Of a DNA stretch of 64,000 nucleotides, positions 2,121-64,000 are shown one piece after another. The notes below the pieces were generated by a model, which was not told the DNA's origin, did not search any database, and worked only from the letters and a program-made list of their open reading frames with translations. Position 1 is the stretch's first letter. Each line of letters starts with the position of its first letter. Position numbers and translations under genes: made by a program. The stretch comes from Isurus oxyrinchus (taxonomy: Eukaryota), in NCBI GenBank assembly GCA_026770705.1, contig JANJGN010000011.1, positions 146,630,001-146,694,000 of the forward strand. The letters are read 5' to 3'.

Positions 2121-4812
2121 CTGTAAGGAACAATTGCACTATGTTTTCAGCGTTATTCAGAACTGTTATAAGTACAGCGAACCTCCGATGGTAAGAGTAG
2201 TACTGGTGAATAGGAATCTGTGCTGAGAAAACACCAGCACCACATGCCGAAGTTTTGACAACTTCAGTTAATGAGACTCACCAGTGTCTGATGACATGGA
2301 CATGATAAATGCACTGGCCAGTAGCCATTCATGCTGCACAATGTGGAGTCTTATTTTGCATCATGAGATCACTGGTAAGAATGCTGTTTGAATTCTGGCA
2401 AATTGCACCTACCCCATTTTTAGGAGTTTATTATAGATTCAGTAACATGAGACTGCACTCTGAAAGGGAGCTCTCAGCTCAAAGTTCTTTACACTGTCCA
2501 GGACTGTACAGTCAGATAAAAATTGATACTGGTTGACAGTTGACTATACTTCCTCGTGGATCATCAAAATAAACCTTAAATACCCATTTAAGTGACACTG
2601 GGAAGTTTTCTAGACTATAATTTGAGCTTTCCATTCTGAAGAATGGGTAATGTTTTTGCATACAGGTATGATCTTTGTGCATGCTATGTTTACTTGTGTT
2701 AATTTTTTGAGACTATCAGGCTCCATTTAAGAAGGTTTGAGGAAAATGTTGTGAATCTAGCATCCTTCCCTGGTGTATATACTAGGAAATTACAGGATAG
2801 AGTGCATGGCCAACTTGATTTTCTGAGCAAGACAATCCCAGGACATGGCTGCAACAATGAGACCCATGCTCCTGTCCACAGTGGGGAAGCTTTTCAGATG
2901 CAGGCAACCAACCCAGTTCGCCACCCACCCTGGGAAACTTCTCAGTGGCAGGAAGTTGTCCCGATGCGTTGACTCCCCTATTTTCCCACTCCCACTCTTC
3001 CCCCCCCCCCGGGCCTCCCTCAACGCCTGTATCCACGGGGCCAGGAAATTTCCAGTTCCATTGTGTCAGTGCCTGTGGAGTCCCAAGGTACACAATGCAA
3101 TTTGGACAGTCTTGACCATTTGTTTCCTATATTATGAGGGCCTAAGGCAAATTGGTGATGATGGAGCAGATTGCCAAATGGATAAGTGAATGTGTCCTGC
3201 ACCTGTTCTGCTGCTGCTTTGCATCTCTCCAGTGCATTTCAATTCATAACAAATATTGTAAGGCTGCTAAATGAAACAACCCTCGTATATATACAGCAAT
3301 TACTCTCTAGATTTAGCAGCAGCACTTGACAGTGCCTTTAACTGATTACTCCAGAGACCTAATGCAATGGCTTCTACATCAAGACCGCACCCCTAAAGCT
3401 TTAATATTTTGTCATTCTGCTTTAGTTTGTGAACAATGTAGAAAGAAAATGAAGGGTAGTTACCCACCTTGTAGAGTTGTCTTCACTCTGTACACCCTCC
3501 ACAGTCCCAGCCCTCCATCCCTGCAGGATATAATTTTGGTGATTTTAGTGCAAAAGTTTCAGTTTGGCTTTGGTCAAAATGAATTGGCTGAATGGCACTT
3601 TATATAAACACAGAAGTAAGAAGCCAGAGCTGGGTATCTAAAGCATCATCGAGACATTTATATCTGTATGCAGAGGTTTTCCCAGAACTTATCAAGCCAG
3701 GCTATACCCCTATGGTATGTAAAAGATGCAAAACCTCTTACGAAATATTTGGGGTAATGAGTGATTTTTTTTAATGGGGCATTCTCACCTGTTGATGTAC
3801 ACCCTGAAATAATTGTTTAAATTTAATCATCGTTTCAGTTTTCAGAAATGACGTCCCAGCAACTCCTTAATTATCAGTTAAGTTGATTGCAAAGAAGCAT
3901 TAATGCATTGAATAAGGAACTCATTTTGTGGGTGGTGTTCCCATCCCTTCAATTAGGAAAGTAGGGTTTTATCAATTTACTGAGAAACAATATGCCAGTC
4001 ATTTGCAATGCTTTTAGTAAGGGTTTTTGAGCCCTGCTTGAGAAGTAGACTAATAAGCCTGACTTATAAACCACATTTTAAAGCAGCAATTGTTTGTTGA
4101 AGGAACATGCAATTAATGACCATTAACCTAAGCTAAGAGAACACTGCAACTAAAATGTGACTAGTTAAGTGGAAAATTGAAATGCATATTTAACTTCAGA
4201 AGAAAGTGATGATCTGTCCAGTAGCATGAATTGTGCTGCAAGACTTTTAATGCTTTACTTATGGATCACTCTTTATTATCAATTCTGTAATTAGAAAAAA
4301 ATGCTTCAAAATAGCCTTATTTCTTGAATTCTCATCCACAAAATACCTCTTCTACTCAATATTAAAGCCAAAAAAAAGCATACTCTGATGAACTTTCCTA
4401 ACTCATATGACATAGGAGCTCTATGGTTGGCGGAGGGACAGTTTTGCCGGATACAAATGTAGGTGCTAGATATCCCCGTTAATCCAATCTTCTGATTTTC
4501 TTCTTTGACTTTTTAAAAATCGAATATATACCCTCCTTCTCAGTTAAATTGTCTGAGCTCTCATAGTTGGCCAAAGGTCCAATTTTCATAGATCTTGTAG
4601 TCACTAAATATGAGGATGCCCGGTATTTCATGGAATGGTAGCAATAATGACTTCACTGATTTTTTTTTAATAGACTGTAGACAACAGTACCCAATTAGAC
4701 ACTTTGCTTTTTCACTGGAGGTCCTGGGTCAAGGAGATTAGCTCAGAACTAGATGCTCACCAAATCGTTCTTGTTATCAAGTCATGTTTCTATTCATTCT
4801 GTATGGTTTCAG

Positions 4813-6325
4813 ATTTGGGAGGTTCACAGTGGCTGCCCTTCAGTCGAAGGTGGAACAGTACGAACGTGAGATGAATCGTCTAAAAAGGGCATTGGAACGG
4901 AGTGACAAGTACATAGAAGATATGGAGTTCCAGATTGAACAACTGAAGGGAAAGAGAGAGGAGAAAGAGAACAAAGATGGGAAATTCAGTCCAGTTTTGC
5001 CACCTGCTTCCCTACAGGATGGAGAAAATGGAAGCAGCGAACAATTATGGAAGCATTGTAATGACCTCAAGGAGAACAGGATCGTAGCCATGAGGAGAAG
5101 CCTCAGTAATATTAAGCAGCCGTTAGTCAACCAGTTAGATGGTGCAGTATCAACCTCTTTTAACTTCTCTCATCAGCAAGATTTACGTGGAACAGTGTCT
5201 GATTCGGTGCCAGTAAGCCAGGCCCTTGCTGATAATGGACTTCTAACAACAGCTGATGTTGAGAATGATGCTTTGCGTTTGTTCCAGAAGACTGAGGAGA
5301 AGGAAGGTGGATGCACTCGACCTGCGGATGAAAGTGAGATACAATTTGAACTCCCTAGTCCTTGTACTCCATCCACATCACTTGGTGCTCTCCACCTACA
5401 GAGCACAGATGATGAAGTAAGTCCCCTGATGAAAAAAAGAACTCGAAGAAAGAAGCTGACTCACTTCAGAAAACTTTGTTTTGATGGTGCTGGTTGGAGA
5501 AACATGTGTTCTGCAGTGCAAAATGTTGATTGCAATAGTAAGCAGAATGCAGAATTCACCTCCTCCAATAGCCTGATATTTTGGGATTCTTGTCAACCTA
5601 TCCCGACTGAAAGTGCCCTTAAAAGCACTCTAAAGAAAAACGTGCAGACTTCTCAAGTTGAAGATCCCCTGGTCAAATTAGAGGCCAAAAGGCCAAACTT
5701 GATCAGTAGCCCAGTTACTGAAGGTCCTTGTTTCCCTGAGTGCGGCACTGTACGTTCTAGAACATCCAGCGAGACCTCAATGGATGCAGCCTACCGAGAA
5801 AAGATATCTGAGCTGGACTTCATGTTGGATGAGACTGAGAACCTTAGAAACCCTCAGTGCTGTCTGATATCCGAAGACCTTTCTGACCTTGACATGTCTT
5901 TGACAGCGGATCTAGCGCAGTGCACCGAACTTTTGAATGAAGCTGAAAAAAGATTAGAGCAGAAAATGCGTCAAAACCAGCCGCATGCTTCTACCTCAGA
6001 TACCAGGGATATGATTGCAAATAACGATGAGCGAAGTGTGGTTTCCAAGCCCATAGTGCCTCCTGTTGCTTTAAACATAAAAGAATCATTATCTTCAGAA
6101 GAGAAAACTTCTTTCCAGGGTAGCTTTAGTTCCCCTTTTCTTTCAGTAAGTTCTGAACTATCTGGCCTCCAGCATAAGAAACCATCTTTCTGGAACAGCT
6201 GTTTAGTACCTGAAAATGAAAAAATGCTGGAAGCAACCAACAGATGCCAGACTAGTAAACGAAAGCCACAGTGTTATGGTGAAGAGTTATCCAGTCCCTC
6301 TAAGTCATCAAAAAATGATTTCTGA
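4813..6325 (+). CDS. OBI1: OBI1 (RNF219, ORC ubiquitin ligase 1), terminal coding exon; upstream exons not recognised in the window
   Basis: Acceptor tttcag ends at 4812 (phase 2). FGRFTVAALQSKVEQYEREMNRLKRALERSDKYIE and RTSSETSMDAAYREKISELD match motifs recalled from human RNF219; C-terminus SSPSKSSKN; stop TGA 6323-6325; neighbour is POU4F1, as in human. Confidence 0.93.
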
Positions 6326-11339: not shown

Positions 11340-12712
11340 GCAGTGCCATGCAATCACCAACTTTTTCTGCCCTCTCACTGGAAAAAATGGTGCTCAACTG
11401 GGCTACCCAGCGAATCTAATTATTTCCCTTGACATTTAATGTCCTTACCATTGCTAAACCCTGCATCACGGAGGATGCTGAGCCTTAGGGTTACTATCAA
11501 CCAAAAATTTAACTGGGACAGCCACATAAATACTAGCCAATATCTTCCGGCCGGCGAGCAGGGGTGGGGCCCACTCCCGGACGCATAAAATGACGCGGGG
11601 TTGCATCATTTAGATTTTCAGTTCAGGTGCACAGCCGAATCAGCTACATGCCTGCCGAACTGTGAACGGCCTATTAAGGCCATTAAAATACTAATTAACC
11701 TGATTGATGGACCTGCCCGTCCGACCTTAAGGTTGGTGGGCAGGCCAGGAGCCTAGGTGGGCCTCGGAAAAAGCATGGAACCTCATCCACGGGCGGGATG
11801 AGGTTTCATGAGAGTATTTAAATTTTTTTATCAAATGCTTAAGTAAAAGTTATGGATATGTCCCAACTCATATGGCAGTGTCACATGAGGGAACATGGCA
11901 GGGAAATTTTTTTATTACCTTTATTTCAACTTTTGAATCGGAGCCGATCTCTCTGAGGCCGCACTTTGCCTCAGAGATCTCTGCGCTCTTTCACGCCGCA
12001 CTCCCGGCTGAGGGAATCCCCCTGCACAGGGAGCGCATAGCGCTTCCTGGCAGACGTCGCGTTGGATGAGCCTTAATTGGCCCACCCACTTAAAATGGCA
12101 ACGCGCCCCCAATCGGGAGCACCGATCAGCTGCCACACTTTTCCCCCCACCCCACTGGATGAGGGGGAAATTTAGCCCACTGTGACTACAAATGCAGGTC
12201 AGAGGCTGGGAAATTTGTAGTGAGTAACACACCTCCTGACTTCCCAAAGCCTATCCACCACCTACATGGCACAATCCAGCAGTGTGATGAAATACTCTCC
12301 ACCTGCTGGGATAAGTGTGGCTTCAACAACAATCGAAGCATAACACCATCCAAAGCAACCCACTTTATGGCACCTCATTCACCATCTTACATGTTCATTC
12401 CCTCCCATTGTCACACATTGGTGTAGTGTTAGCATACAGTATGCACTGCAGCAACTTGCAAGGTTCCTTCAACAGTACCTTTGAAATCGATAACTCTACC
12501 AGTAGTAGCAGACCACCTGCAAGTTCCCCTCCAAGTCACGCACCAACTTGACTTGAAAATATATCAATTTTCCTTTGCTGTCACTCAGTCAAAAATATGG
12601 AACTTCCTTTCTAAGCACTATGGGTGTACCTACAGAAGGCAGCTTCTCAAGATCAATTAGGAATGGGCAACAAATGCTAGCCTTTCCAACCCTCACATTC
12701 CGTGCATGAAAA
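11340..12712 (+). mobile_element. Decayed CR1-clade LINE (RT C-terminus and 3' tail), split by a TIR element at 11535-12178
   Basis: ttactatcaaccaaaaatttaactgggacagccacataaatact joins to gtgactacaaatgcaggtcagaggctggg across the insert; tail caattaggaatgggcaacaaatgctagcc. Confidence 0.8.
11535..12178 (+). mobile_element. Non-autonomous TIR element (Harbinger-like MITE), copy A
   Basis: Right TIR ggaaatttagccc, degenerate left TIR; TSD act/act; homologous to copies B-E. Confidence 0.8.
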
Positions 12713-17302: not shown

Positions 17303-17890
17303 TCAGCCTTGTGTCAGTACTAGCACACTCACCTCTGAGTCAGAAAGTTGTGGATTCATGCCCTAGGGTGGAATTTTCTGCCCCCATGGACCGCTAGGAT
17401 CATCCAGTCCCACCCAAAGTCACTGGACTTTTGGCTGGGCCACTGAATCTCCCCTGGCGGATCCCACCATGATGGAGACGGAAAATCCCGGCCCTATTCC
17501 AGAGACTTGAGCACCGTAAACTAGGCTGATACATCAATGCTGCACTGAGAATGTGCTATGCAGTTGGAGTTGTCATCTAATGGATGAGACATTTAATTAA
17601 CACTCTGTCTTCCCTCTGAAATGGACTTAAAAGATCCCACTGCACAACGGGAATATGAGCTTGGGAGTTGTCCCTATTTTCCTGGCCAATATTTATCCCC
17701 CTATCAACATCATTAAAAAGAAAAGGTCTGCTCATTATCTCATTGTTCTTTGTGGGACCTGACTGTGGACAAATTGGCTGCTACATTTTCATTATTACAA
17801 CAGCGACTATACTTCAAAGTAGCTCATTAGCTGTGGAATATCTTGGAACTTCCTGGCATCATGAAAAGCACTATATTGTTGCAAGTTCTT
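17303..17890 (+). mobile_element. Deu-domain SINE (SacSINE1/AmnSINE1-like) carrying a short TIR insert
   Basis: tRNA-like head, ggatgagac...aaagatccca, cctggccaatatttatccc, L2-like tail ctatattgttgcaagtt. Confidence 0.75.
17366..17493. mobile_element. 128-bp MITE with the same TIR type as copies A-E
   Basis: gggtggaattttc...gaaaatcccggcc; TSD cta/cta. Confidence 0.75.
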
Positions 17891-18639: not shown

Positions 18640-19580
18640 TTATGACCTTAATCACCTTTAGACTCAACTATTCTAATACTATACAAAAACAGAATTACCT
18701 GGAAAAACTCAGCAGGTCTGGCAGCATCGGCGGAGAAGAAAAGAGTTGACGTTTCAAGTCCTCATGACCCTTCGACAGAACTTGATTTCGAGTCCAAGAA
18801 AGAGTTGAAATATAAGCTGGTTTAAGGTGTGTGTGTGGGGCGGAGAGATAGGGAGAGAGGTGGTTGTGTAGACAAACAAGCAGTGATAGAAGCAGATCAT
18901 CAAAAGATGTCTAATACTATCTAATACTAAAATATTCTAATACTATCTTGGCCAGTTTCTCACACTGTGTCCTCTATAAGCTTGAGTTCATCCAAAGCTC
19001 TGCTGCCCATGTTGCAACTCACACCAAGTCCCATTTGCCCAACAACAATGTGCTTGCTGATGCACATTGGTTCCCGGTCTTGTATTGTCTTAATTTTAAA
19101 ATTCTCCTCCTTGTTTTCAAATCCCTCCCTATATTTTAACCTCCTCCAGCCCTATAACATTCCAAGGTTCCTACATTCCTTCAATTCTGGCCTTACAAGT
19201 GTGGGGGGATGAACTTCACCACTGGAATAGGTGACTGAATCGTGCTGTCTGCTATCCATGCAGCCAAAATCTAGGCCATAATGTTCATAGGCATGGACTG
19301 ATATAGGAACTAGAAATTGGTGTATGGATGGAGTTAAGACATGTACATTGAGAAGTGCACCAATGTTATTTCTGCATCCAAGTCTACTTAATGTCGGCAC
19401 TGCCTAAAATGAGAAAATGTTACATTTAATATTGCTAAAATTGTTCATCATCTTGATAGAAATCACTACAGTTCTCCAATTTTAGCCTCTTGTAAATCAC
19501 TGATTTTCATATCTCTTTATATGGCTAAAATCTTATTTGATAATTCTCCTGTGAAGCACCTTGGGTTGTTTTACCCTGTT
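18640..19580 (+). mobile_element. Decayed L2-like LINE 3' fragments
   Basis: tagactcaactattctaat; peptide KLEFIQSSAAHV...HWFPVLYCLNFKILLLVFKSL typical of L2 RT C-terminus; tail gtgaagcaccttggg. Confidence 0.65.
18683..18909 (-). mobile_element. Penelope-like terminal fragment containing a minimal hammerhead-like motif
   Basis: Shark repeat aactcagcaggtctggcagcatc; minus strand agtt-CTGTCGA-agggtc atgag gactt-GAAACGTC-aact; flanked by repeated tctaatactat. Confidence 0.6.
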
Positions 19581-20966: not shown

Positions 20967-21396
20967 GGCCAGGATTTTCTGGTTGTCGGGCGTGCTTGGC
21001 AGGGGCAAGCAGGAGTGGCTGTGAAACTGTCACATGAGCAGGGACATGTTAAAGATGATTTTGAAAAGTTTTAAACTTTATTTAAATCACTGGTCGAAAC
21101 CTCATCCTGTCCATGGATGATGTTTCGTCAAAAATGCAAAGGCCGCCTGCCCTTTTCGCCAGCCCGCCAACCAACCCATTGGACAGGCAGTGAAAAATTT
21201 CAATGATTTAGTTCATTAAGGCCCTTAATAGGCCTGTGAATTGGTGGCAGGCGCACTGCTGATTCCCGCATGTGCCCACCAACTGAAATATGCGAGTGTG
21301 CGATGGTGTTGGGATGCTCACCCAACATCATCACGCGTCATTTTATGCTGGTTTGGGTTCAGTGTGCGCCCACCCGCTGTGCCAAAAATTCTGCCC
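20967..21396 (-). mobile_element. Harbinger-like MITE copy B, internally deleted
   Basis: ggccaggatttt...aaaattctgccc; flanks gtg/atg. Confidence 0.75.
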
Positions 21397-25839: not shown

Positions 25840-26014
25840 ACCATGCGGATGCTGGAGATCTGAAATAACAGAAAAGACTGGAAATACTCAGCAGGTCTGG
25901 CAGCATCTGTGCAGTGAGAACGACTCATTCACATTCCAAGAAAAGTCATATTCAACTGGAAACGTTAACTATATTTCTCTCTTCACGGGTGCTGCCAGAC
26001 CTGCTGAGTATTTC
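25840..26014. mobile_element. Penelope-derived inverted-repeat element
   Basis: Perfect 25-bp inverted repeat at 25881-25905 / 25990-26014, same family as 18683; degenerate GAAACGTTA core. Confidence 0.65.
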
Positions 26015-29839: not shown

Positions 29840-30330
29840 GTGTGGAGAGGAGGGGGGAAGGGGGTGGCTGGGGGGGGGGCGGGGCTGAGGGGAGTGGGAA
29901 CTGTCCATCAACCAGAAGGGAGGGCGAGCGCGCCTGCGCCCACTCCTCCGCCTGCCCTCCAATGGGCTGCGGCCTCTGCCTTGTCTCCGGGCAACCGCTT
30001 CCCCGCACGCGCCGCTCCGGCGGACGGGCGGGACGGCAAAATCTCGCGCGAGCGCAGAGAGGCTGGGCCGAGAGTGGGGAGCAGGTGTAAGCGGAGCATC
30101 TGTGTGTCCCAAGCAGCAATAGGGAGGCAGCACTCACTGAGACAGACACAGAGCAGCACCGGCCTGCAGCTTCACATAGATCTATTTATATATGTATATA
30201 TTTACCAAAAAAAAAACAAATGCACATATAAATATATATAATATGTGCTTACAACTTTTGCTTTCTCTTTAAATACTGTTCCAGCCTCATTTCCTCTCTC
30301 TCTCTAGCATCCCTATGTACAGTGTTCAAA
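29840..30330 (+). promoter_or_regulatory. POU4F1 CpG-rich proximal promoter and 5'UTR
   Basis: GC boxes and G-runs 29848-29900, CCAAT ~29959, dense CpG directly upstream of the ATG. Confidence 0.7.
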
Positions 30331-30453
30331 ATGATGTCCATGAACAGCAAGCAGCCAGCCTTCGGCATGCATCATACCCTACCTGAGCACAAGTACACTT
30401 CTCTGCACTCCAGCTCGGAAGCAATAAGGAGAGCCTGTCTACCAGCGCCGCCG
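30331..30453 (+). CDS. POU4F1: POU4F1 (Brn3a) coding exon 1
   Basis: MMSMNSKQPAFGMHHTLPEHKYTSLHSSSEAIRRACLPAPP followed by donor gtatgt at 30454 (phase 0). Confidence 0.97.
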
Positions 30454-30745
30454 GTATGTAGCTATCTCTCTCTCTCTGTCTGTCTCTGTTGTGAATGTAG
30501 AATAAGTAGCGCTGCAAGGCAATCGTTTGACAAATGCTGCTTAAAATGTTCCCATTCCTGTTCGTGTAAGCCGAGTCTCCACTATCTGTGTGCCTTTGCG
30601 AGATTGCAACTCTTTTTCTGCTTTCGTGTTGCAGGTTTAGATGTTTTCTTTTTGTTAAATGTTCTGTGACTATTCCCTGTTGAGAATTAGCTGTTGATCA
30701 TGTTTTCCTTTCTCTCTCTCTCTCTCTTTCTGTTTCTGATAGCAG

Positions 30746-31801
30746 TTGCAGAGCAATATCTTCGCCAGCTTAGATGAAACTTTACTCGCCCGCGCCGAGG
30801 CTTTGGCAGCCGTGGATATCGCCGTGTCCCAGGGCAAGAGCCACCCGTTCAAGCCGGATGCCACCTACCACACCATGAACACGGTGCCATGCACTTCTAC
30901 CTCGGCCGTCGCCCTGCCGCACCCGTCCGCCCTGTCCTCGCACCCGCACGCTCACCACCACCACCACCACCACCAGCCTCACCAGCCGCTGGACCCGGGA
31001 GAGCTCATCGACCACCTCAGCTCGTCCTCGCTGACCCTAGCCGGGGCCATGGCGGTGGCCGGAGGAGGAGGAGGAGGAGGCGGCGGAGGGGACGGCGGCG
31101 GCGGGGGAGGCGGCGGCGGGGGCGGCGGCGGCGGCGGCGGAGTGGTGTCCACCTCGTCGCACCCCCACGCGGCTCACATGCACAGCCTGGGCCACCTGAG
31201 TCACCACCACCACCACCATCACCACCACCACCATCCGCACCAGGCGGCCATGAACATGACCCCCCACCCTCACGGGCTGGTGGGCCACGGCGTGGCCTCG
31301 GGGATCCCCTCGGTGAACGACGTGGACGCCGACCCGCGGGAGCTGGAAGCCTTCGCCGAGCGATTCAAACAGCGGCGGATCAAGCTGGGGGTGACCCAGG
31401 CGGACGTGGGAGCGGCGCTGGCCAACCTGAAGATCCCCGGGGTGGGCTCGCTCAGCCAGAGCACCATCTGCAGGTTCGAGTCCTTGACTTTGTCCCACAA
31501 CAACATGATCGCCCTCAAGCCCATCCTCCAAGCCTGGCTGGAGGAGGCGGAGGGCGCGCACCGGGAAAAGATGAACAAGCCCGACATATTCAACGGCGGC
31601 GAGAAGAAACGCAAACGGACGTCCATCGCCGCCCCGGAGAAGCGATCCCTGGAGGCTTACTTCGCCGTTCAGCCCCGGCCCTCGTCCGAAAAGATCGCGG
31701 CGATCGCCGAGAAACTGGATCTGAAAAAGAACGTTGTGCGGGTTTGGTTTTGCAATCAAAGACAGAAGCAGAAACGAATGAAATTTTCCGCCAATCACTA
31801 G
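30746..31801 (+). CDS. POU4F1: POU4F1 (Brn3a) coding exon 2: POU-IV box, His/Gly tracts, POU-specific domain and homeodomain
   Basis: LQSNIFASLDETLLARAEALAAVDIAVSQGKSHPFKPDATYHTM; DPRELEAFAERFKQRRIKLGVTQADVG; EGAHREKMNKP, YFAVQPRP and RMKFSA favour POU4F1 over POU4F2/3; polypyrimidine tract and cag acceptor. Confidence 0.97.
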   Translation: MQSNIFASLDETLLARAEALAAVDIAVSQGKSHPFKPDATYHTMNTVPCTSTSAVALPHPSALSSHPHAHHHHHHHQPHQPLDPGELIDHLSSSSLTLAGAMAVAGGGGGGGGGGDGGGGGGGGGGGGGGGGVVSTSSHPHAAHMHSLGHLSHHHHHHHHHHHPHQAAMNMTPHPHGLVGHGVASGIPSVNDVDADPRELEAFAERFKQRRIKLGVTQADVGAALANLKIPGVGSLSQSTICRFESLTLSHNNMIALKPILQAWLEEAEGAHREKMNKPDIFNGGEKKRKRTSIAAPEKRSLEAYFAVQPRPSSEKIAAIAEKLDLKKNVVRVWFCNQRQKQKRMKFSANH

Positions 31802-50500: not shown

Positions 50501-53500
50501 CATGGACTATATATTTCAATTGTGTCTCATGATGAAATTCATACGTTGTCCCCAGAAGATCCCATGATGGGGGTGGGGGTCACTGTAGATGGTTGTTTTA
50601 TCTTAACATAATGGGTCTAACATTTCCATGACATCATTGGGGAATCTGTAAGGAATTCTATGGATAATGAGGATGGTCATTCAGAATCAACAGTAAATAT
50701 TTCATGAGGATCTACAGAAGAGAGAAAAGAAGGTGGTCAGAAAGGTGACACTCTTTCTCTCGGCTGTATGAAAGCCTTGCACATAATCATATACTGCTGG
50801 CTTAGTATCAGGTTCAAAAAACATTTTTGCGCTAATGAGCCAATTGGCGAATTTTTTTGTGGTCAACTGATTCCTCTTTGAACATTTAATGAATGTTGTT
50901 GATGTGATAAATCTTGGTGCTGGGAATGATGCAGCAGTCAAGAACTACCTTAGTGGTTTAATAATTAAACTGAATCAACACTTCAAAGCAATGGGGTGGC
51001 TAAATAAATATAGATGTTACCACTTTTATAGTGGTATTACATTTATTACATTTTACTTAGCAGAAATAATTAGAGCTTACACAAGAAGGGTTTTTGCATG
51101 GTGATAATTCCTTATTTAGTGTATTACATTATTGCAGGTCATTATATTTGAACAACTTTACATGAGGATAGGACAAAAGCAAACTAAATGATATCAGTGC
51201 CAATCAGCATTCCAATATTACAGGTGAAACAAAATTGATTTATCAAAGGATTCACCACACGATGTGGTGAACCATTTAAGTCTGGGAATGCGGTGTGTCA
51301 TTTTCAGGCTTCAAAATATTCCTGTTTCATTAAATAACACAACCTTGTGTTATCCTTCTCTCTTTTTTTACGTAAGTTTATGCTGTTAATTTTCCCTGTT
51401 CTTGCTTTCTTTCAAAATGGTGGTCATCAATGATTAGCGTAAGTGTGGAAACACGATAAATGAGGCAGCCTTCTGCATTTTGATACTTCTGACTTCTCAC
51501 AAAAGGATAGAAATTCTACAGCATTTCTTAAGAAATTATACATTTCCACCTAATCAAATAATGATGGAAACCTACGAGAAAATAAATAGTTGCAGTCTTA
51601 TTGTTAGACGTAGTAACTGTATGCAGTTTATTTTTATTATGCACTGAATCTGGATGTCAGCTTTAGGAACACATTTATAACAACATACACTTTAGACCTC
51701 TCATTATCATTTCCAATTTGCCTACTCCATTTTTGTATATAATACCAGCAAACAAATGCCACCACCACCCTGAAAAGGTTACCCAAGAACATCAGCACTC
51801 AAGAAGGTGGTTGACAGGATTTCAGTCTCTCAAGTGGGAAGATACTAAACAAACATCATCAAAATTCTTACCTATACCTATTACTTTACTCATTGTGTTT
51901 CACTTCTAGCCTATCTTATATAATATTCATAACTAAAATCAATAGAGTGGAAAAAAATAAGATTCTGCAATAAAAAAAAGTTAATCACATTTCAATATGC
52001 CTTTTCTCCCCCCACAGTGTGCACGAATCAGGGACTTGTAATTAAAGTGACTGCCACAATCTAAAAGCTCCAATGAATCATTTCTCCCAATGAAAGGTGG
52101 TTTCATGGAAAGCTATGTGGAGAGTGACAGCAACATGAAGTGGAATTACACAGATTGAATAAAACTTCAGTTCATAGCTATTGCAAAGTAAAGCACATTT
52201 GTCTAACAAAAGGTTTAACCTTTTTACTATCTGCATTTTTTATGACCAGCAGGGTAACTGCATTGGATATATTTAAGTAGGAGGACCAACATTCTGTGCC
52301 TGACATGTTTCACCTAATTGTTGTATGCTGCCTGTGATATGCAATAGCAACTGGTATATTAAGATATGCAGTCTGTTTATTTTAATTTGATGCTATTGGT
52401 CATAGCTTACATTAAACCAATAACAGACATTGCATTAGCGTGCAGCTGAGTCTAGTTTCCTATGTGAGATTGGATATTTGCACTAATTCTTTCAATTATC
52501 TTGTAACATTAATGATTTAATCACATAAATTTGATATGCAAACACTATAATATTGCATGATGTTAATTTTCAAAAAAATATTTGACTTACTAGCAGGTGG
52601 AAGGCATTAGTTGCAGTTGATTTAACCAATTAATTTCTTAAAAATCAGTCCTTATAAGAATCATTTATTGCATATACAGTATTTAGAAATCAAAATATTA
52701 TTTCAAAATGGATGAATGCAATTTTATTTTAGAGAAGACACATTTGTTTCGAAGCATAATCAAAGCTTCTGATTATAAAAGGAAATAATCTACATATTTC
52801 CTGTTGAGGTCATAAAAGTCTAAAGTACTCCTCTCTGTTCATTTCTATACAGCAATGTGGCTCTAACCTTCCTGCCTGACCTGAGTGCATTTGCAGTGGA
52901 CTCCAGGGTTTATAGCATCTGTCTACAGCTTTTCTGACTAGCCCCTCTGGAGGCCTGAGTTTTTTTTTCAAATTGAATATTATAAACCACACTGCAAGCC
53001 ACATCCGAGTTCTGTTTCTCTTTGTGCCCTGGATTGTCTTACTGCCAATGACAGCATTAAGCACCTTCATTAACATCCTCCCAGTGCATTCAGGTATCGA
53101 AATATCACTTTCTAGATCCAATGACAGTGATATTGTACTCCTGTCCCCCGTCAGTCAGATCAGTACTTCAAATGTCTTGCAGACTTAAATAAACTTGAGG
53201 CAGAGGTTTGATATTTTTATATTTGAGTCTTGTTCAACACATAGTTAGTTTGATATGTTATATATTTATATTTTATACAATATATAAAAATATAATGTTA
53301 TATGTTATATTTTATTAAATATATTATATGTTTATACATATAAAATCCCAGAATTGAAGATCTCTTATATTGCATGATAACCTTTATCTTTAAAATTTCT
53401 GCTAAAGTTGCTGCAAATGTCATAATAAATCAGCACCTAATGAACATGCTAAATGGCTTTTCTTGTCCTCCAAATAGACTCAGTCCTTGTTATGAACCTA

Positions 53501-55071
53501 CTTTAGTTACAGTGCAGAATTGCTATTTAATCAGATATCTACATAACAAAGCTTTTCCAACGTGCATTCAACTTCACAGAAAGTGTCTTGCACATGTTAT
53601 TTTTAATTATTTAAATGCTACAGAATCCTTTAATGCCAACTGACAGAATAGCTACTGCAAAACGTGAAGGTTGTTCAAATTCAAGTGTTTTTTTGGTATA
53701 TGGCTGTTCTAATACAAAGCTAATGCAGATTGACAGAAATGCACCACCCCTTCAGGAACCGAGCATCACATCTTCAACTGTAATCATCATTGCTTCTACT
53801 GTAGTAATGTCAGAGGGCTACAGGCTGCAGGTTGCCACTGAATTGGTGAGCAGTGTGCCATTTACTTTTACAATGTCCCTTGAATTTGTTCCTCATTGTG
53901 CACCTTGCAACTACCTGCTTCTCTGATGGATCAGATGTTCTAGACCATGGACATTTGACTGGCCGCCTTGAGGGTTTTTTTTATCCACCAGCAGGAAGAG
54001 GAAGTACTCACTGCAAATTGGTCTGGATTGCACTTTTGCAGGCATTATGCCATAATTCACACTGACTTCTGCACCGATGGGAACTTACACCAACATTTCC
54101 TGTAGAGCTTATTTGCTCAAGCAGGAATGTCAAAATCAGTGTAAAGCAAATGAAAATGCAGAGTCACTAATACGTGTAAAAGCAAGGAAACCTGATGTCT
54201 TCCATCATAACCCCTCACTCTCAGAACCTCCTTCCGCTGCTACAATTCTTACATTATTACTCAGTCCAGGTGTTTCATTCCCATCGGGGAGTGGGGGGTG
54301 GGGGTTGGGGGGTGGGGGGGGTGGGGGGCAACTCCAGCGACTTAGTGCTTCTGAACATTTGGAAGTTGCAAGGAACAAAAACATTTCAGGTGCGCAACAC
54401 TGAGACTGATAATGCTATGGTTAAGTAAACAAATTTATAAAAAGCTTAGAAAATTGATATCAAGCCCCAGAAATCTCCCTTGCTGACTTGAAGTGGCTTT
54501 GAGCCTGACTGGACCTACATTTTTAGGGGCAAGTCTACCCTAGTATTCAAGTATATCCAGGAAATTTGCATGAGCATGTCTTTTGCATGGACAAAGTTAT
54601 GTAAATGATTGGTAGAGGGTATTGGGGGTTGTAACTCGGATGTGGCACGAATGACCAAAGAAATTCATGTGTGGCAGTTTCAACACTTGTGGGATCAGTT
54701 ACATGCAAAATTCCTTTGAAAACTGACAATGTAACACTGCTCCCACACCATAGTTAGCCCAAAACCTTCTAGGAAATTGCAGGCCATAGTATGCAGAGGA
54801 ACTTCTGCACCATTGTGCGTCTACAACCAGTGATCTGCTAACTTAATATTTAGAACGACAGAAACATTTAATTAAACGGGGTATTATAATTATCACTAGG
54901 ACTGTCATTTTTAACATAGGTGACTGTAGCAATATTTCAATGCCCATCTGCCACTCACAAGCAACACACAGAAAAGGGATGGAGGTTTAGTCTTACATTG
55001 GTCACTCTAGCTGAAGGAAGGTATGTAGCCAAAAAAGTTGGTGAACCAAATATTGCAATTTAAAACATATG

Positions 55072-55715
55072 GGCCAGGATTTTACATTGGTTGGGCTGGC
55101 TCGGCGGGAACGGGCGGGGGGGCGATCGCAGAGCCAGCCGCCACCCGCGATCGGATCTGCACCACAAATTCACAAGGGCGAGCCAATTAAGATCTGCCCT
55201 ATGTGAATTGCAAACGGTACCACTGGTGCTACCTGTGCAGGCGGGGGGAGGAGGGACAGTCGGGTCTAGCACACAGTTCACGCATGCGCGCAAAAGAGCA
55301 CTTCAGTCTCCCTGAGGCACGGAGCTGCCTCAGGGATATTAAAACACTTTTAAGAAAAAAATATAAGGACAGTAAAAATTTAATGAATCATGTCCCCTCA
55401 TGCGACTGTGTCACATGAGATGGGACATGTTTTTATTTGCAAAATAAAGTTCTTATATAATCAGCATTAGCTTTAGGAAACCTCATCCTGCTCGTGGATG
55501 AGGTTTCCTAAAAAATATAAGGGCCGCTTGGCCTTTTCGCTGGCCTGCCAACCGTTAGGTTGGATGGGCAGCGTAAATTTGAAGTTAATTAGATCATTAA
55601 AGGCCTTAATAGGCTTTTCTATTATTGGTGGGATGCATGCCTGACGTCATCGTATGTCATTTTATGTTCTGGCGTGTTGGGCATGTGCTCACACGCCGAA
55701 TGTAAAGTTCTGCCC
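55072..55715 (-). mobile_element. Harbinger-like MITE copy C
   Basis: ggccaggattttac...gtaaagttctgccc; TSD atg/atg. Confidence 0.85.
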
Positions 55716-58700
55716 ATGGTATATCATAAAATCATAGCATGATATAACAAAGAAGAGCACCCTGTGCTGGTACAATTAATCCTACTCGTCCAAGTCAAGT
55801 TCATTTTAAATCAATGTACTCCAAATATGAGATGTCCCAGGATGGTAAAATACAGGTCTCAGCATGTGATTAAACCCTTGTTGATCTCAGTCGAGCCACA
55901 CTGAGGGGACCACCTGTTTCCTGATGAGAAAAGGGATGAAAAGATGCCAGAGAGTTCTCAGTGGGCCACAGTTCAAGATCCAGAAAGGTGCGACCAGGAA
56001 TCTGGGAATTGGTCACCCTTGCTGTAGTAGGTGCACAGTGAAAGAATCTCAGGAAGCTTGAAAGAAAGGGTGAGACACATTCTTACCAAATAACATATGA
56101 AAGAATGAATAAATAAATAAGTCATGCCTTGGAAGCAACCTACCTCTGTGCAATATCAGTGGTATCAATGACACCTCTCCAAGTTCTAGAACATTTTTGT
56201 CTGAGTGATTTCCTGGTCCAACTTTTGAAAAGGTTGTTATCTGCAATTGCACTTCAAAGAGCATAGGGGAAACAAAGATTAACATGATAAATTTTATCTA
56301 AGTCACAAACGTATATAATGATATCATGCCTCTTTTCACTTAGTACCATGAATAATTTCTGTGCAAAATTAGTCATTTAAGATCCACTTGTAATGCAGGA
56401 AATATTTATAACTAGCTTGCTGATGGAAGTTTAATATTCAAAAGAGACCAATGCTCTGTTTTTAAACACTTTTTTCATTTAATTTGTATTTTAAGTTCTC
56501 CATGTCCCTTCTTGATCCCAGGAAGCTCCAGCAATTGACAATTTATTGGATGCTGTAAGTTGCATCTTTTGGACATCTGACTACGGGGTCAACTTGGGGG
56601 AGGTAAGAAGAGTAAGTTTATGCTTCCTTGAGTCGGTTGAGACTAGTAAGTCAACATCCTAAAAGGAACACTGAGTGTTAATGTCAGGCAAAACTGCAAA
56701 TGGAACTTGGATCTCCTGAGGAGAGGTCAACACTTTACTGCTGCCCATGATTTCATTCTTGAAATTAAGGTGACAGTTTGTATAAGTACAACCAAAGATG
56801 CTTTTGAGTATGTTACTCTATTTCTTAAAACACAGCAGTATGAGTCTATCAGTAAATGCAGACTGTGTTTGGATGTGGATTCTGTCAAGCTCCCTTCATT
56901 TCCTGAGTGCAGCTTCACACTTTTACAGTCATGGCAACAGTGACTAAAAACCAAGACGGCACACTTAACAACAGTACTCTGGATTTCCAAGCTGGACTGT
57001 GACAACCAGTTTAATGGAATTTTGCAAAATAGGCATAAAACTAGTTATGACATATGCAGAGGCATGGCCTGTTCAGTTCATGTGCTTGAATAGTTCAGTA
57101 TATGTCACCTCTTTGCAAATGTAACTCTCAGATCAGGCCATTTTGAATTTAAGAATCATTTCAGAGCTTAACCCTGTCTAGATATAATGATGCCATCTAG
57201 ATGCTGATTTTTACGGGTAGTGATTTGTCATGGTTTGAGTATTTCTGCAACTTACTGTGATCCTGGGAATGCTGTCCTCATACTGGCCGTACAGTATTTG
57301 TGTGCCATGCTATGACTGCAGTAGATACTGCAGCTTATCTCAGTGCTCAAGTCGAAGAATTTATTACCTTCAAAGTTGCAATTGTTAAGCAAATTTTTCG
57401 ATAGCAGTGGGTTGGCTTAAGAAAGTTCCTGTTAGAATCATTAGTGCAGGAAGATTTTTCAACATCAATCTGCTGTTCTTGCATTTAATACATTTTTTTC
57501 TGATAACTGTCCTGTGACTTTTGACTAAATTTCTTGCGATTAATCACTAGACTTAATGATGAAACATCTGAAGCATTGCAGTCTGTATTTCCATTAAAAC
57601 AGACATATGTATATATATTTATATATATTTAGATATATAGAATCATATGAATATATCTATATATTGAGAGGCTGCTATTCTGATGGATAATAGCATACAT
57701 TTTCACTTTGTCTACAAAAGAAGAGATTAGACTTGTCTGTCCAATGGATATTAATGTCATTTGTACTGCAAGATCTAGAGTTAATGATTACCTCATTTGT
57801 GATGAGGTTAACAGCATTTATCATACTGCCTCAAAATAGTGCATCATGCCCTGCGAGTGACCTTGTTGGTGTCCAGAGAGTCATTGCTGTAACTTGCCAC
57901 GGCAGTTACAATAATGCATAAGAAAGTAAACGGATCACATACCTTGCGATTTGCAAGTATTCTATTGGAGCATAATAAGAAACATTTTGTTGAAGGATAG
58001 ATTTAACGCATTGCTATTCTTAATTGTTCTCCTGCACTTATTAGCAATTTTGAAAACAATGTTATTCCATCGTATTGCATTGTGGCATAACAATATTCCT
58101 TACCAAGCTAATGAAGACTATTTCCTTCATTTTTTTTCTATCATCAAAAAAAGTAATCAGTTTAAATTTTGAGAGCAAATTGGAAGACTGTAAAGAAAGC
58201 TAAAGCTTTTAAATAGTACAACAGCTTGCATTTACATGCCGTTGAAGCGTATAAGTTGAGCTTTGAAATTATTCCAAAAATGGGGGATCAACTTATGCAC
58301 TGAGTGTAAAATGTGATCTGCGATGTGGGTGCAGGTGATCGCCATTGTGAAATGTGGGGAAAAAAACCCCACTGGTAATTCATATTAAATTAATATGGCA
58401 TAATTTATTGAATAAATTAATTGTACAAAGATGCCTTTAACCACAAGGAAAACATTTGAAAACCTGACAAATTTGTTGTCTTTGGCACCCCTCACAAATA
58501 GTTCATTAAATTCATTCTGAGTCACTTTTGCTATGGCATCATCATAAAGATCCCACTCTGGATCAGATATGGCACTTTTGCTTTCAGAATTATCCGTCAA
58601 CACCAAATCATCTTCCTCTCCATCCTTTTATTTGGATATTCAACATTTTTGAATGATCTGATGATACTTGATGTACTAATAGCATCCCTTGATTTGATGA

Positions 58701-59105: not shown

Positions 59106-59182
59106 TGGTGGGATTTCCGGCCCTGCCTGCCGCTGGGATCGTCCGGTCCCGCCAAAAGCCAATGGGCTGGAAAATCTCGGCC
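59106..59182. mobile_element. 77-bp MITE remnant inside the pogo transposase
   Basis: tggtgggatttcc...ggaaaatctcggcc; similar to 17366-17493; flanks ata/aca. Confidence 0.65.
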
Positions 59183-59589: not shown

Positions 59590-60661
59590 GTACCATTGCG
59601 ATTCTTGATTTATTATGTCCTGTAGTTTTCACTAGAACTGTTTTTGAACCTTTCCACTCCACAGTTTGGTAGCTGAGCATATTGAAATTCATGGGCATTT
59701 CATCCATGTTGCTGATGTGACCTAATGGACACTTGTGATTATGCCACTGTCTGATGATGAATTGCTGGGAATGGGTAATTTTAGCATCAAGGATTTTTGG
59801 TAGTTTCTCTAAGCGATATTGGTCTTCTGCCACAACACTGAAAGTTTTTGTTCCATAAAGCATCTACTCGAGCTATTGCTTTGAAATGTTTGCTGGACTC
59901 ATGGTTTGATCTGACCCACTTAAGTGAATGTATATGCATTACATTTCTTCATAAAGATGAAACTATTTTGACGATTTTCAGGGACCCATTTCGATGCATA
60001 CTTCTCAAGATCAGGCCAATGGCTGCTCCATTTTCTGATGACACATTTCATCTTGGACATCTTCTTCAGGGCAGATTCCTTCTTCTTCCGTTCTTATAGC
60101 AGTTTTTCACTGAAATCGATTTCCCTCACTACAGCACAGTTATTTGATGAATTAACGAATTTTATGACATTTAGCTCGAAACTAGCTTCCATACTTCATT
60201 TGTTTTGTTGGAAGACTCATTGTTTTGTTCACCATGCAGGGCCTGCTCTGTGTAGGCATGTCTTAAACCCCCAGGCACCTTTGCAACACAGCCCATATCG
60301 CCAGCTCAGTCCCTTGCACCCAGTTATGAGGTAAGTAAAACATGGATTTGTGGGACGAAAAATTGAGGCTGACTGCTAATGCAAGTTTAGCAGTCATGGT
60401 TGAAGAGGGTGTCGATTTATAGGTCAAGTATATGCAAAAACATGATCTTTAGGGCTGGAAAAATGGAGTTGCCTTCACGCTGGGTCGATTTATACACCCG
60501 ACTTTATGGTAGCTCTCCTTACCTGCAGGAAAATATTCAGAGCACTTTACGATAAGGAGGAAAAGGACATGATTGGCATTCAAAGTACATGGAGAGCTAA
60601 GGTCATGAATTATGGAATATCCACTTTAGGTTGCCAATTTAAATTATGTGCCAAATACGTG

Positions 60662-61362
60662 GGGCAGGATTTTCCCATCGGTGAGTGGGCCCCGCCCCCC
60701 CCCGCCAACGCCAACGTAAAGTGACACGCGATGACGTCGGGCAGAACTCCTGACGTCACCGTGCCCCATTTAAATGATCAGGTAAGGCGGGGGCACAGCC
60801 AAATCATCTGTGCGCCCGCCGACATGTCAATGGCCAATTGAGGCCATTGACAGAGTCATTAAACTAATTAATGGACCTGCCCGTCCAACCTTAAGGTTGG
60901 CAGACAGGCCAGGAGCCCTGGCGGGAATCAGAAAAAGCATGAAAGCTCATCCACGGACGGGATGAAGTTTCATGTAGGTTTTAAAAACTTTAATTAAAGT
61001 TTTTTAAAAAATTATGGACATGTCCCAACTCGTGACAGTGTCACATAAGGGGACATGTCAGGGATTTTTGTTTTCTCTATTTTTAATATTTTTTCCAGTA
61101 GGGCCAATCTCCCTGAGGCAGCCCTTAGCCTCAGGGAGATGAGTGCACTCTTTTGTGCGCATGCACGAAAGAGCACGCTCTCAGGTTTAGGGATTCCTCG
61201 CCACCTGCACAGGGAGCGCATAGCACTTCCGTGTGGACGTCAGGCTGGGCGGGCCTTAATTGGCCCGCCCATGTAAAATGGTGGTGCACTCCCGATTGGG
61301 GGCGCCGATTGGAGGCACACCTGCACTTCAACTTCACCCCTGATGGGGGGAAAATCCTGCCC
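60662..61362 (+). mobile_element. Harbinger-like MITE copy D
   Basis: Perfect 15-bp TIR gggcaggattttccc / gggaaaatcctgccc; flanks gtg/ttg. Confidence 0.85.
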
Positions 61363-61843
61363 TTGCAGTGCAAATATGTCTGCCATAAATCAGAAGTATC
61401 ATTTGGCTTCTTATTCTCAAAGGCTGATTCTGCAAAGCTGTAGTTGTGCTCAATTCACCAATCTGAGACGAGTTGCAACGGTACTTATTCTAACCATTTA
61501 TCCTGACTAATGCCAACTGGAATTCCCCTGCTATCTCCCAGTGGTGAAAAAATGAAATTCTTCCAGAGCATCGGAAGCAGTGTAGCCCTTTTGAAACATT
61601 TATGTCAATTCTGGATAAGTTAGAAAAAATTTAGGCAATCTGGTCTCTTTTCAAACCTGTTGGGTTATTTGTACTGTTTGTAGTGTTCAGTATAAGCAAT
61701 TTGACCCTGCCTCTTCTTGGGATTTCTTACAATTTCCTTATTTGAGTTCTGGGGCCACACCGTAACATTAGTTTTAGTGAAAGCCACTTTACATCAAGGC
61801 TAAAATTGCAGAATAAATGCCAAGCAATGTACCTTTAGTCAAT

Positions 61844-62552
61844 GGGCAGAATTTTGCCCTCGGATGGTGTGTGGGCCCCACCAGCTTGGCGACGGATGGA
61901 CAGCTGACCCCCGCCACCGAAACGGGGCCTGTCGCCATTTTGAGTGGGCGGGTCAATTAAGGCCCGTCCAGTGGCCTGCCCGACGGGAAGTGCAATGCGC
62001 TTCCTGTGCGGTGGGGGAGTGGGTGGGGGGAGGATTCCCCATTTGTCAAAGTGAGTTCTTTTGCTCATGGGCACAAAAGAGTGCACTGCTCCCTGAGACT
62101 AAGTCCTGTCTCAGGGAGATTTGTGACTAATAAGTAAAGTCTAAAAATAGATAAATATTGAAATTATTAACATGTCCCCCTCATGTGACAATGTCACACG
62201 AGATGGGACAAGTTAATAATAAACATAGCAAATTTATTAAATGTTTAAAAAACGGACATGAAACTTCATCCCGCCAGTGGATGAAGTTTCATGAATAATC
62301 TGCAGCCCGCTGGGGCTCCTGGCCTGCCCACCAGCCTTTACTTGGACGGACAGTCTTTAATTATCATAATGAGCCTGTCAATTGGCCATTGACAGGTCGG
62401 CGGGCGGACAGCTGATTTCGCTGTCCGCCCGCCTTCCTAAAAATTTAAAGGGACCGGGATGACGTCGGGGATTCCTCCCGAAGTCATCCTGCGTCATCTT
62501 CTCCTCGACGAGTGGGCCCCGCCCCCAAACCGCTGAGGGGAAAATCCTGCCC
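61844..62552 (-). mobile_element. Harbinger-like MITE copy E, inverted relative to D
   Basis: gggcagaatttt...aaaatcctgccc; TSD aat/aat. Confidence 0.85.
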
Positions 62553-63064
62553 AATGTTCCAAATTCGACCTCTGGTGCGAATTAGAATGGGCACAGGGGA
62601 CAAGTGTTATTGTGTGGAGCTGAAAATTGCAGGTGAGTAACTTTTAATGGGAAGCGGGCAATTAAAGGGGAGTGGCATAGAATGGGACAAAACCTCTGCA
62701 GGCTTTTGCAAAGCCGCAAAAGGTATTCCAAAACATCCTGCCCAGGCTCAAAGCGTGTGGGTTAAGAAAAGGCAGAAATAAAGATAAAGAACGGTGCAAA
62801 GTGTAGCCCAGCACTTGAATCCCTTTTGAACAGCTGCTGGAAATGAAGTGGTGCCGCATGAGGTGATAACAGAGCAACATTTCAGTATGCCTGCAAGCAA
62901 AAAAAGTGTCACCTTGTTTCAGGTCACACCTGAACATTCCTGGCACCGCATAAACATGCCTTCTACTGCGTGCCAGCTATAGGAGTTTGAGCAGCAGATG
63001 GCACAGCTCTGGACCTGACTGTCTGTTGGCTGGGAAGCTCGGAGAAAGTTCAGAGGATACTCAT

Positions 63065-63386: not shown

Positions 63387-63450
63387 AAAATTAATGTGAA
63401 CTCTGCACCTCGTCCTGTTACTGTGAGTAAATCAATTTAAAAAAAAACTC

Positions 63451-64000
63451 ATGCCGCTGTTTGGAAGAATTGGCCCATATGATGCTAATATTGAAGATTG
63501 GAGCCAGTATGTTGAGTGCCTCAGGTTTTACTTTGTAGCAAATGAAATAACTGCCAAAGAAAAACAGAAAATGATCCTATTAAGTGTATGTGACAGTAAA
63601 GCATCTAGCTTGATTCACATCTTCACTGCTCCAAGCGCACCCAGTTCCAAGTCACATAGCGAATTAGTGAGCCTAGTGAAAACACACTTCCAGCCGAAGC
63701 CGTACATGATAATACAGCGCTTTAAATTCAATTCAAGAGTTCTGGCCTCTGGGGGAGTCCACGTAGTGAGCCTCAAGCAGTTTACAGAACGCTGTGACTT
63801 AGGAGATGTTTTAAACGATATGCTGCGGGACTGATTGGTATGTGGAGTCAACTACGATGCCATTCAGCACCGATTGTTTGCCAAGGTTGATATCGATTTG
63901 AAACATGCCCTAGAAATCTCCCTTGCCATGGAAAGTACTGCAAGAGACTCACAGGTTTTGCAACACACGGATAATGACGCCATACTTCATGTTGGGCGAA
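63451..64000 (+). pseudogene. Gypsy (Mag-like) gag with premature stop, runs off the window
   Basis: MPLFGRIGPYD...WSQYVE...YFVAN...LKQFTERCDLGDVLNDMLRD*LVCGV; the TGA at 63832 is consistent with a CGA>TGA change in RDRLVCG. Confidence 0.85.

Follow-up and report, generated by a model that had tools for sequence, protein, structure and literature searches.

Paired changes in the hairpins of a Harbinger-like non-autonomous element of Isurus oxyrinchus point to constraint at the DNA level

We analysed a window of 64,000 nucleotides (64 kb) from the shark Isurus oxyrinchus (assembly GCA_026770705.1, contig JANJGN010000011.1, positions 146,630,001 to 146,694,000), and all coordinates given here are those of the window. 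The long exon of OBI1 lies at 4742-6325, of which 4793-6322 matches the Cetorhinus maximus OBI1 at 94% identity and the OBI1 of several other sharks at 76-78%. A POU-homeodomain gene with two exons was found at 30232-31801, its POU exon being placed at 30743-31801 by Pfam, and from its sequence and its adjacency to OBI1 we take it to be POU4F1. Five copies of an element with terminal inverted repeats (TIRs) are distributed around these genes, copies A and B between OBI1 and the POU gene and copies C, D and E past the latter. Other repeats are also present. The interval 63427-63834 holds a frame of 135 amino acids with no Pfam match, which resembles the N-terminal part of Gypsy-type retrotransposon polyproteins. 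At 25881-26014 lies an imperfect inverted pair (73% over 135 bp) of a short repeat that recurs at 18685-18759, and these are presumably LINE-type repeat ends.

The sequence-only reading that drew attention to the family had placed its copies at 11535 (A), 20967 (B), 55072 (C), 60662 (D) and 61844 (E), and all five were located at these starts. With D as query, nhmmer recovered the five copies in the 64-kb window with E-values of 2e-25 or better, and a profile built from all five found no sixth copy there, so that the copy number, for this window only, is 5 per 64 kb. Copy D (60662-61362, forward strand, 701 bp) is a full-length, non-autonomous TIR element and the best preserved of the family. 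Its left TIR (60662-60676, forward) pairs at 15/15 positions with the right TIR (61348-61362, reverse), and it is flanked by GTG on the left (60659-60661) and TTG on the right (61363-61365), a target-site duplication with one mismatch. The duplications of the other copies are AAT/AAT for E (61844-62552, reverse strand, 709 bp), ACT/ACT for A (11535-12178, forward, 644 bp), ATG/ATG for C (55072-55715, reverse, 644 bp) and GTG/ATG for B (20967-21396, reverse, 430 bp). Over the five copies 13/15 duplication positions are identical, the duplication being exact in three copies and carrying one mismatch in two. The termini of the elements are GG or AG, and the TIR match is 82-86% in C and E and degenerate in A, where it is the left TIR that has decayed. 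About 270 alignment columns are missing inside B, from the middle of hairpin H8 to the right subterminal region. Pairwise identity among the copies is 55-71%, and C and B cluster in the tree with a support of 1.0. D and E stand tail to tail with 481 bp between them (61362-61844) and an inverted similarity of 62-72%, an arrangement that could form a large fold-back; they are separate insertions, since their target duplications differ.

The best reading of this family is a non-autonomous cut-and-paste DNA transposon, that is, a large MITE of the Harbinger/PHIS type. TIRs, target-site duplications and lack of coding capacity, three of the criteria for a TIR MITE, were found: no element frame of at least 80 aa had a Pfam match, and protein searches found no relatives of two D frames of 75 and 78 aa. 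The broad PHIS/Harbinger criteria given in the accessible text of PMC9179366 and PMC4482050, namely a 3-bp duplication and a TIR shorter than 60 bp that begins with A or G, also describe the element. In that of PMC4482050 the strict PIF/Harbinger group is defined by a TWA target duplication, and Pangu by ANT and a TIR starting with AG or GG. Among the five copies TWA duplications are absent (0/5), ANT occurs in two (E and A) together with the GG or AG termini, and no duplication is an exact CWG or TNA. T2/Kolobok elements have TTAA as their target. The PIF/Harbinger assignment first proposed is therefore valid only in the broad PHIS sense, through the 3-bp duplications and the TIR, but not for the strict group, because TWA duplications are lacking. 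An autonomous Harbinger partner does not lie in the 64-kb window, where 112/112 frames of at least 80 aa gave no Pfam match to a transposase or Myb domain. A SINE was rejected, as all five copies are without a B box or A8 run and TIRs are present. In the grey reef shark the most frequent DNA transposons are of Tourist/Harbinger type (PMC12498223, accessible text), whereas no such elements were detected in the elephant shark.

Copy D had been described as a series of about 12 stem-loops, which agrees with the 12 non-overlapping Watson-Crick hairpins that we counted at a score of at least 6. That these make up almost the whole interior was overstated: they cover 334/671 interior bases, and the 18 hairpins found at a score of at least 5 cover 432/671. 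The stems quoted for D are all present in the sequence, the ones called stem 1 and stem 2 with the qualifications given below. The leftmost hairpin, H1 (60729-60761), has arms of 13 bp and a loop of 7 nt, and is followed by H2 (60786-60820), the stem 3 of the sequence-only reading, which has a conserved loop. H3 (60825-60852) contains the left copy of a motif, GGCCWATTAAGGCC (60832-60845, forward), whose right, inverted copy (61252-61265, reverse) is contained in H12 (61246-61271). Between them lie H3b (60857-60873), a short AT-rich inverted repeat; H4 (60877-60907), a palindrome centred on TTAA with its core at 60885-60900; H5 (60908-60922), with arms of 6 bp; and H6 (stem 2, 60938-60974), the best conserved of all, which is present in 5/5 copies and has a loop of 7 nt. 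H7 (60979-61008) is an AT-rich palindrome, near-perfect in D, that aligns poorly in the other copies, and H8 (61017-61059) consists of nested stems with a 1-nt centre. H9 (stem 1, 61107-61140) has arms of 13 bp and a loop of 8 nt, and the series is completed by the hairpin H10 (61148-61173) and the short stem H11 (61212-61230), which shows an A-T/T-A change in C. In H1, H6 and H9 the loop is constant in length (7-8 nt), the centres of H4, H7 and H8 have 0-1 unpaired bases, and some stems are extended in single copies, H6 reaching 17/17 in C and H8 having 16-bp arms in E.

At a score of at least 8, hairpins numbered 10 in D, 7 in E, 6 in C, 3 in A and 2 in B, compared with a mean of 0.35-0.5 and a maximum of 2-4 in 200 dinucleotide shuffles per copy; the count of B falls inside its shuffle maximum of 3. 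Local folding gave z values from -2.4 to -17.1 over the five copies and both strands, and folding of D gave -17.9 on the forward and -14.0 on the reverse strand. Elsewhere in the window, equal raw hairpin counts were observed only in the 700-bp windows of 52851-53900 and 57051-58100. These hairpin-rich stretches near 53 kb and 57.6 kb were rejected as candidates, being TA-rich low-complexity tracts (53258-53336 and 57605-57664), a source of false positives in hairpin counting. We also rejected a fold-back of the whole element, because in 4/4 full-length copies the two halves, compared in inverted orientation, show no homology outside the TIR; in direct orientation they gave one marginal score, in C (p=0.047).

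The claim that both arms of the stems change together between copies was borne out. We scored covariation on sequence-only alignments, taking the 110 pairs of the stems defined on D and following them in the other copies. This gave 219 unchanged cells, 95 with a single change, 22 with a double change that keeps pairing and 15 with a double change that does not, and the 22 pairing doubles compare with 8.0 +/- 2.5 under column permutation (p=0.0002). With each of the five copies as stem reference the cell counts gave p<0.01. When CpG columns were removed the excess was kept for D (14 vs 5.9, p=0.001), A (5 vs 1.0, p=0.0008) and C (11 vs 5.6, p=0.035), and significance was lost for E (9 vs 5.2, p=0.09) and B (6 vs 4.0, p=0.21); of the distinct non-CpG events on D-defined stems, 5/12 fall in the AT-rich H7, where the alignment is unreliable. 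Counted by pairs with G-U admitted, a two-sided change is seen in 20/110 pairs where 11.5 are expected, a value reached by 0/500 shuffles, although relatedness by itself can exceed such shuffles; with slid partners the number of two-sided pairs was 4-11.

A second, curated set comprised 8 hand-picked gap-free helices (82 pairs, 297 cells) and leaves out H3, H3b, H5, H7, H10, the outer parts of H4 and H8 and, for each helix, the gapped copies. Here 246 cells are unchanged, 37 carry a single change and 14 a double one, and 14/14 doubles pair. The null expectation is 1.95 doubles; without CpG-type transitions the figures are 9 vs 1.03, and the curated p-value is optimistic, because the helices were chosen post hoc with the alignment already seen. 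Transversions are involved in 6/14 of these doubles, and paired CpG decay could account for 5/14. They tend to cluster at stem ends, as in the outermost part of H6 of copies C and B, and H6 alone holds 5/14. Each of the 14 is confined to one copy, and therefore an origin in the masters and an origin after insertion are inseparable. The two-arm excess is thus real but modest in number, and comes from five copies and a count made without phylogenetic correction.

The change in H2 from C-G in D to G-C in E, reported earlier as stem 3, is a clean two-arm change. For H9 (stem 1) the G-C/A-T change in E is equally clean, but the one claimed in A is ambiguous: the right arm of A is 2 nt shorter, MAFFT places a GG deletion there and not a G-to-A change, and a 2-nt deletion with one substitution fits equally well. 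The outer arms of H6 (stem 2) carry clean two-arm changes, but the inner pair quoted for it is mismatched in two copies. In D it is a C-A mismatch, with the left arm as in A and C and the right arm as in E, and in B an A-G mismatch.

It had further been proposed that structure rather than sequence is maintained, and this does not agree with the divergence of the different parts of the element. D served to define stems, loops and spacers, and these were scored in comparisons of the other four copies (E, A, C and B) alone, in gap-free neighbourhoods and with three MAFFT modes. Divergence was 0.29 for stems (95% CI 0.24-0.35) and 0.32-0.34 for loops, compared with 0.47-0.48 for spacers (95% CI of the lower value 0.43-0.51), although the spacer value may be inflated through misalignment. 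After Jukes-Cantor correction the values become 0.37, 0.42-0.45 and 0.73-0.77, respectively, and a circular-shift test of the stem mask gave p=0.009. Unpaired loop sequence is also kept, an example being TTAATT in 4/4 copies. Since the loops are conserved, sequence is kept and not pairing alone, and 246/297 curated cells show no change at all. The 37 single changes in the 297 curated pairs correspond to about 6% per site; as they bound the decay after insertion, most of the spacer divergence is probably older and arose in the transposing lineages.

Most hairpins have no sequence motif in common with one another. A 14-bp motif, GGCCWATTAAGGCC, is shared by H3 and H12 in opposite orientation. 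D and A each carry it at two positions that are inverted and not homologous to each other, and B, C and E have a single occurrence each (at most 2 mismatches). In the window 7/8 matches fall inside the elements where 0.78 are expected in all, the motif having been picked post hoc. Such a recurrence looks like that of putative subterminal binding sites. Another motif, TAAAATGRCG, showed no enrichment (11 matches vs 8.0 expected) and was discarded.

The explanation that we prefer, to which we give a probability of roughly 0.5, is that of a Harbinger-type MITE whose palindromic modules are selected as DNA, probably because proteins bind to them, and whose double changes were made by template switching. 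Mobilisation would occur in trans, by a DDE transposase and a Myb/SANT protein encoded outside the window, and each copy probably descended from a different subfamily master. In the transposing lineages the modules, arms and loops alike, would be under purifying selection as DNA, most likely as putative symmetric sites for transposition proteins or for host factors that boost mobilisation. Once a stem had changed, arm-to-arm copying through template switching in replication or gap repair would alter the other arm as well, so that symmetry could survive. After insertion, neutral decay would then produce the single mismatches. In this model the transposase family, the selection on masters, the binding of proteins and the template-switch origin of the doubles are inferred. 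A zebrafish protein reportedly binds a short palindrome.

In the accessible text of PMC8794818, where template switching is treated as a mutational process of RNA genes, its listed signatures are several compensatory changes, extended stems and inverted loops. The shark element has compensatory changes, present as clustered doubles, and copy-specific stem extensions in common with that process; loop inversion was seen in none of the 6 loops examined. A role for internal sequence has been described for mPing, whose internal regions promote or inhibit transposition, and the excerpted study (PMC9921582) favours effects of GC content or nucleosomes, with no common sequence-specific internal site. 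Among the points against the preferred explanation are the diversity of the hairpin sequences, which would not be expected if one protein bound them all, and, in the automatically defined stems, the frequency of non-pairing doubles (15 vs 22 pairing).

A possible though unlikely alternative is that selection acts on DNA structure only, the hairpins having to extrude as cruciforms or to fold in single-stranded DNA when the element is excised, when gaps are repaired or when copies are gained, with their sequence of minor importance. This would agree with the differences in sequence from hairpin to hairpin, with the joint changes of the arms, transversions included, and with the fixed loops of H1, H6 and H9. 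Selection for pairing would slow the stems too, a strand bias is not expected for DNA and none was observed, and PMC5172404, in its accessible part, summarises a stem-loop or fold-back model of replication that was put forward for the Angel MITE. It is the unpaired loops that fit badly, being conserved as well as the stems. Moreover, B lacks several hairpins but has retained its two TIRs and a duplication with one mismatch, so that the full set of hairpins may be dispensable if B moved after its deletion, and a single-stranded step does not appear in the accessible published descriptions of Harbinger elements. The more general notion of a eukaryotic cut-and-paste element that can spread only if the dozen hairpins of its interior fold, as cruciform or single-stranded DNA and less likely as RNA cargo, we regard as distinctly unlikely; if true, Harbinger-type transposition or MITE amplification would pass through a structured intermediate that has so far gone unrecognised.

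The neutral alternative, which the sequence-only reading had raised as correction of quasi-palindromes by template switching, supposes in its full form fold-back or template switching at the birth of the MITE and recurrent template-switch homogenisation afterwards, with an unselected interior. Part of it is taken up in our preferred explanation, as the origin of the doubles. The doubles are private to single copies and clustered at stem ends, the stem extensions are copy-specific, 5/14 doubles fit paired CpG decay, and template switching is able to create and maintain stems (PMC8794818, accessible text). As a complete explanation it is quite unlikely, and the slow stems speak against it. Stem and loop divergence is about half that of the spacers, whereas neutral copying between arms would revert or fix mutations and leave the rate per site unchanged, and so would not explain it. 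Single changes also outnumber double ones, 37 to 14, and in-place correction must therefore be inefficient; the lack of inverted loops (0/6) is a further point against it.

That the copies carry a structured RNA or precursors of small RNAs whose fold is selected, as had been suggested, is improbable. The very low folding energies and the covariation are what such an RNA would show. The strand bias of G-U versus A-C mismatches that had been named as its mark is, however, missing: G-T and A-C mismatches in strand-symmetric helices are balanced at 17:16 and 22:25 (p=0.77) and the shared ones at 2:2, in a test of low power, since most mismatches are symmetric decay after insertion. Both strands of the copies fold similarly, and the 0-1 unpaired central bases of H4, H7 and H8 are typical of DNA palindromes. 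Rfam gave no match at gathering score in the 64-kb window, and in 60600-62600 only three weak matches, all in copy E and 24-73 bits under the cut-offs. No tRNA was found, a Pol III B box and a poly(A)/A8 run are absent in 5/5 copies, and one lone match to a Pol III A box was found in the elements. The two-arm changes thus point to a constraint at the DNA level rather than to RNA. Retention of the copies as host regulatory elements near POU4F1/OBI1 is very improbable, for although palindromic Harbinger MITEs are enriched at open chromatin of Xenopus liver (PMC12676858, accessible text), the same modules conserved across independent insertions reflect the history of the family and not individual loci, and the copies show ordinary decay and deletions.

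A close counterpart in organisation is Harbinger-N12A_XT, a non-coding PIF/Harbinger MITE of 342 bp from Xenopus tropicalis, described in the accessible part of PMC12676858. Like the shark element it starts with GGGC, ends with GCCC and has TIRs and internal palindromic repeats, and palindromic interiors are therefore not new. It differs in being a nested end-to-end palindrome of repeated modules, with no evident sequence match when compared by eye, whereas the shark element is twice as long and consists of serial, mostly unrelated local hairpins in halves that are not homologous beyond the TIR; covariation is not reported in that text. PIF/Harbinger, Pangu, NuwaI and NuwaII (PMC4482050) and the Tourist-like mPing (PMC9921582) share with the shark element the short TIRs starting with G, the 3-bp duplications and the non-autonomous size, and serial hairpins are not among the features described for them in the accessible text of these sources. 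Palindromic interiors are also known in other vertebrate MITEs, such as the teleost Angel (PMC5172404, accessible text) and those of Kolobok/T2 type (Kolobok-N2_XT, PMC12676858). These are described as one large fold-back with other termini, in contrast to the dozen local hairpins seen here. In the accessible open-access literature we found neither an account of this family from sharks nor one of covariation within a Harbinger MITE, and the family may already be present, unstudied, in automated shark repeat libraries. A scan of GTDB with the H6 pattern gave one exact match, at 601-631 of locus L001 (contig CAYOZT010000187.1); it lies just past a bacterial ORF, extends only weakly to copy A (about 63%) and was set aside as a chance, terminator-like match. 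A blastn search of a phage collection with D gave no match.

Serial hairpins, two-arm changes and slowed stems are an unusual combination within a familiar transposon class, and the evidence points to DNA-level constraint in that class over a hidden RNA. It is not yet clear why some MITEs amplify beyond their parent elements, and cases in which the internal sequence plays a known part are few (mPing and Stowaway). An element with a dozen separable palindromes and measurable two-arm changes, which probably has many genomic copies, allows selection on sequence, selection on structure and mutation by template switching to be separated. It also calls for caution, as strong covariation is possible in a DNA element that gives no RNA signal.

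Two minor observations concern the insertion sites and the neighbouring repeats. The base following the duplication is G in 4/5 copies and the one preceding it is C in 3/5, which weakly suggests that symmetric targets are preferred, in a manner resembling the flanks of NuwaII. A second short MITE-like family has copies at 17366-17495 and at about 59107-59182, with similar termini, GG...ATTTTC and GAAAAT...GGCC; the two show 71% column identity, the second has a 50-bp deletion, and this family may be mobilised by the same transposase as the hairpin element.
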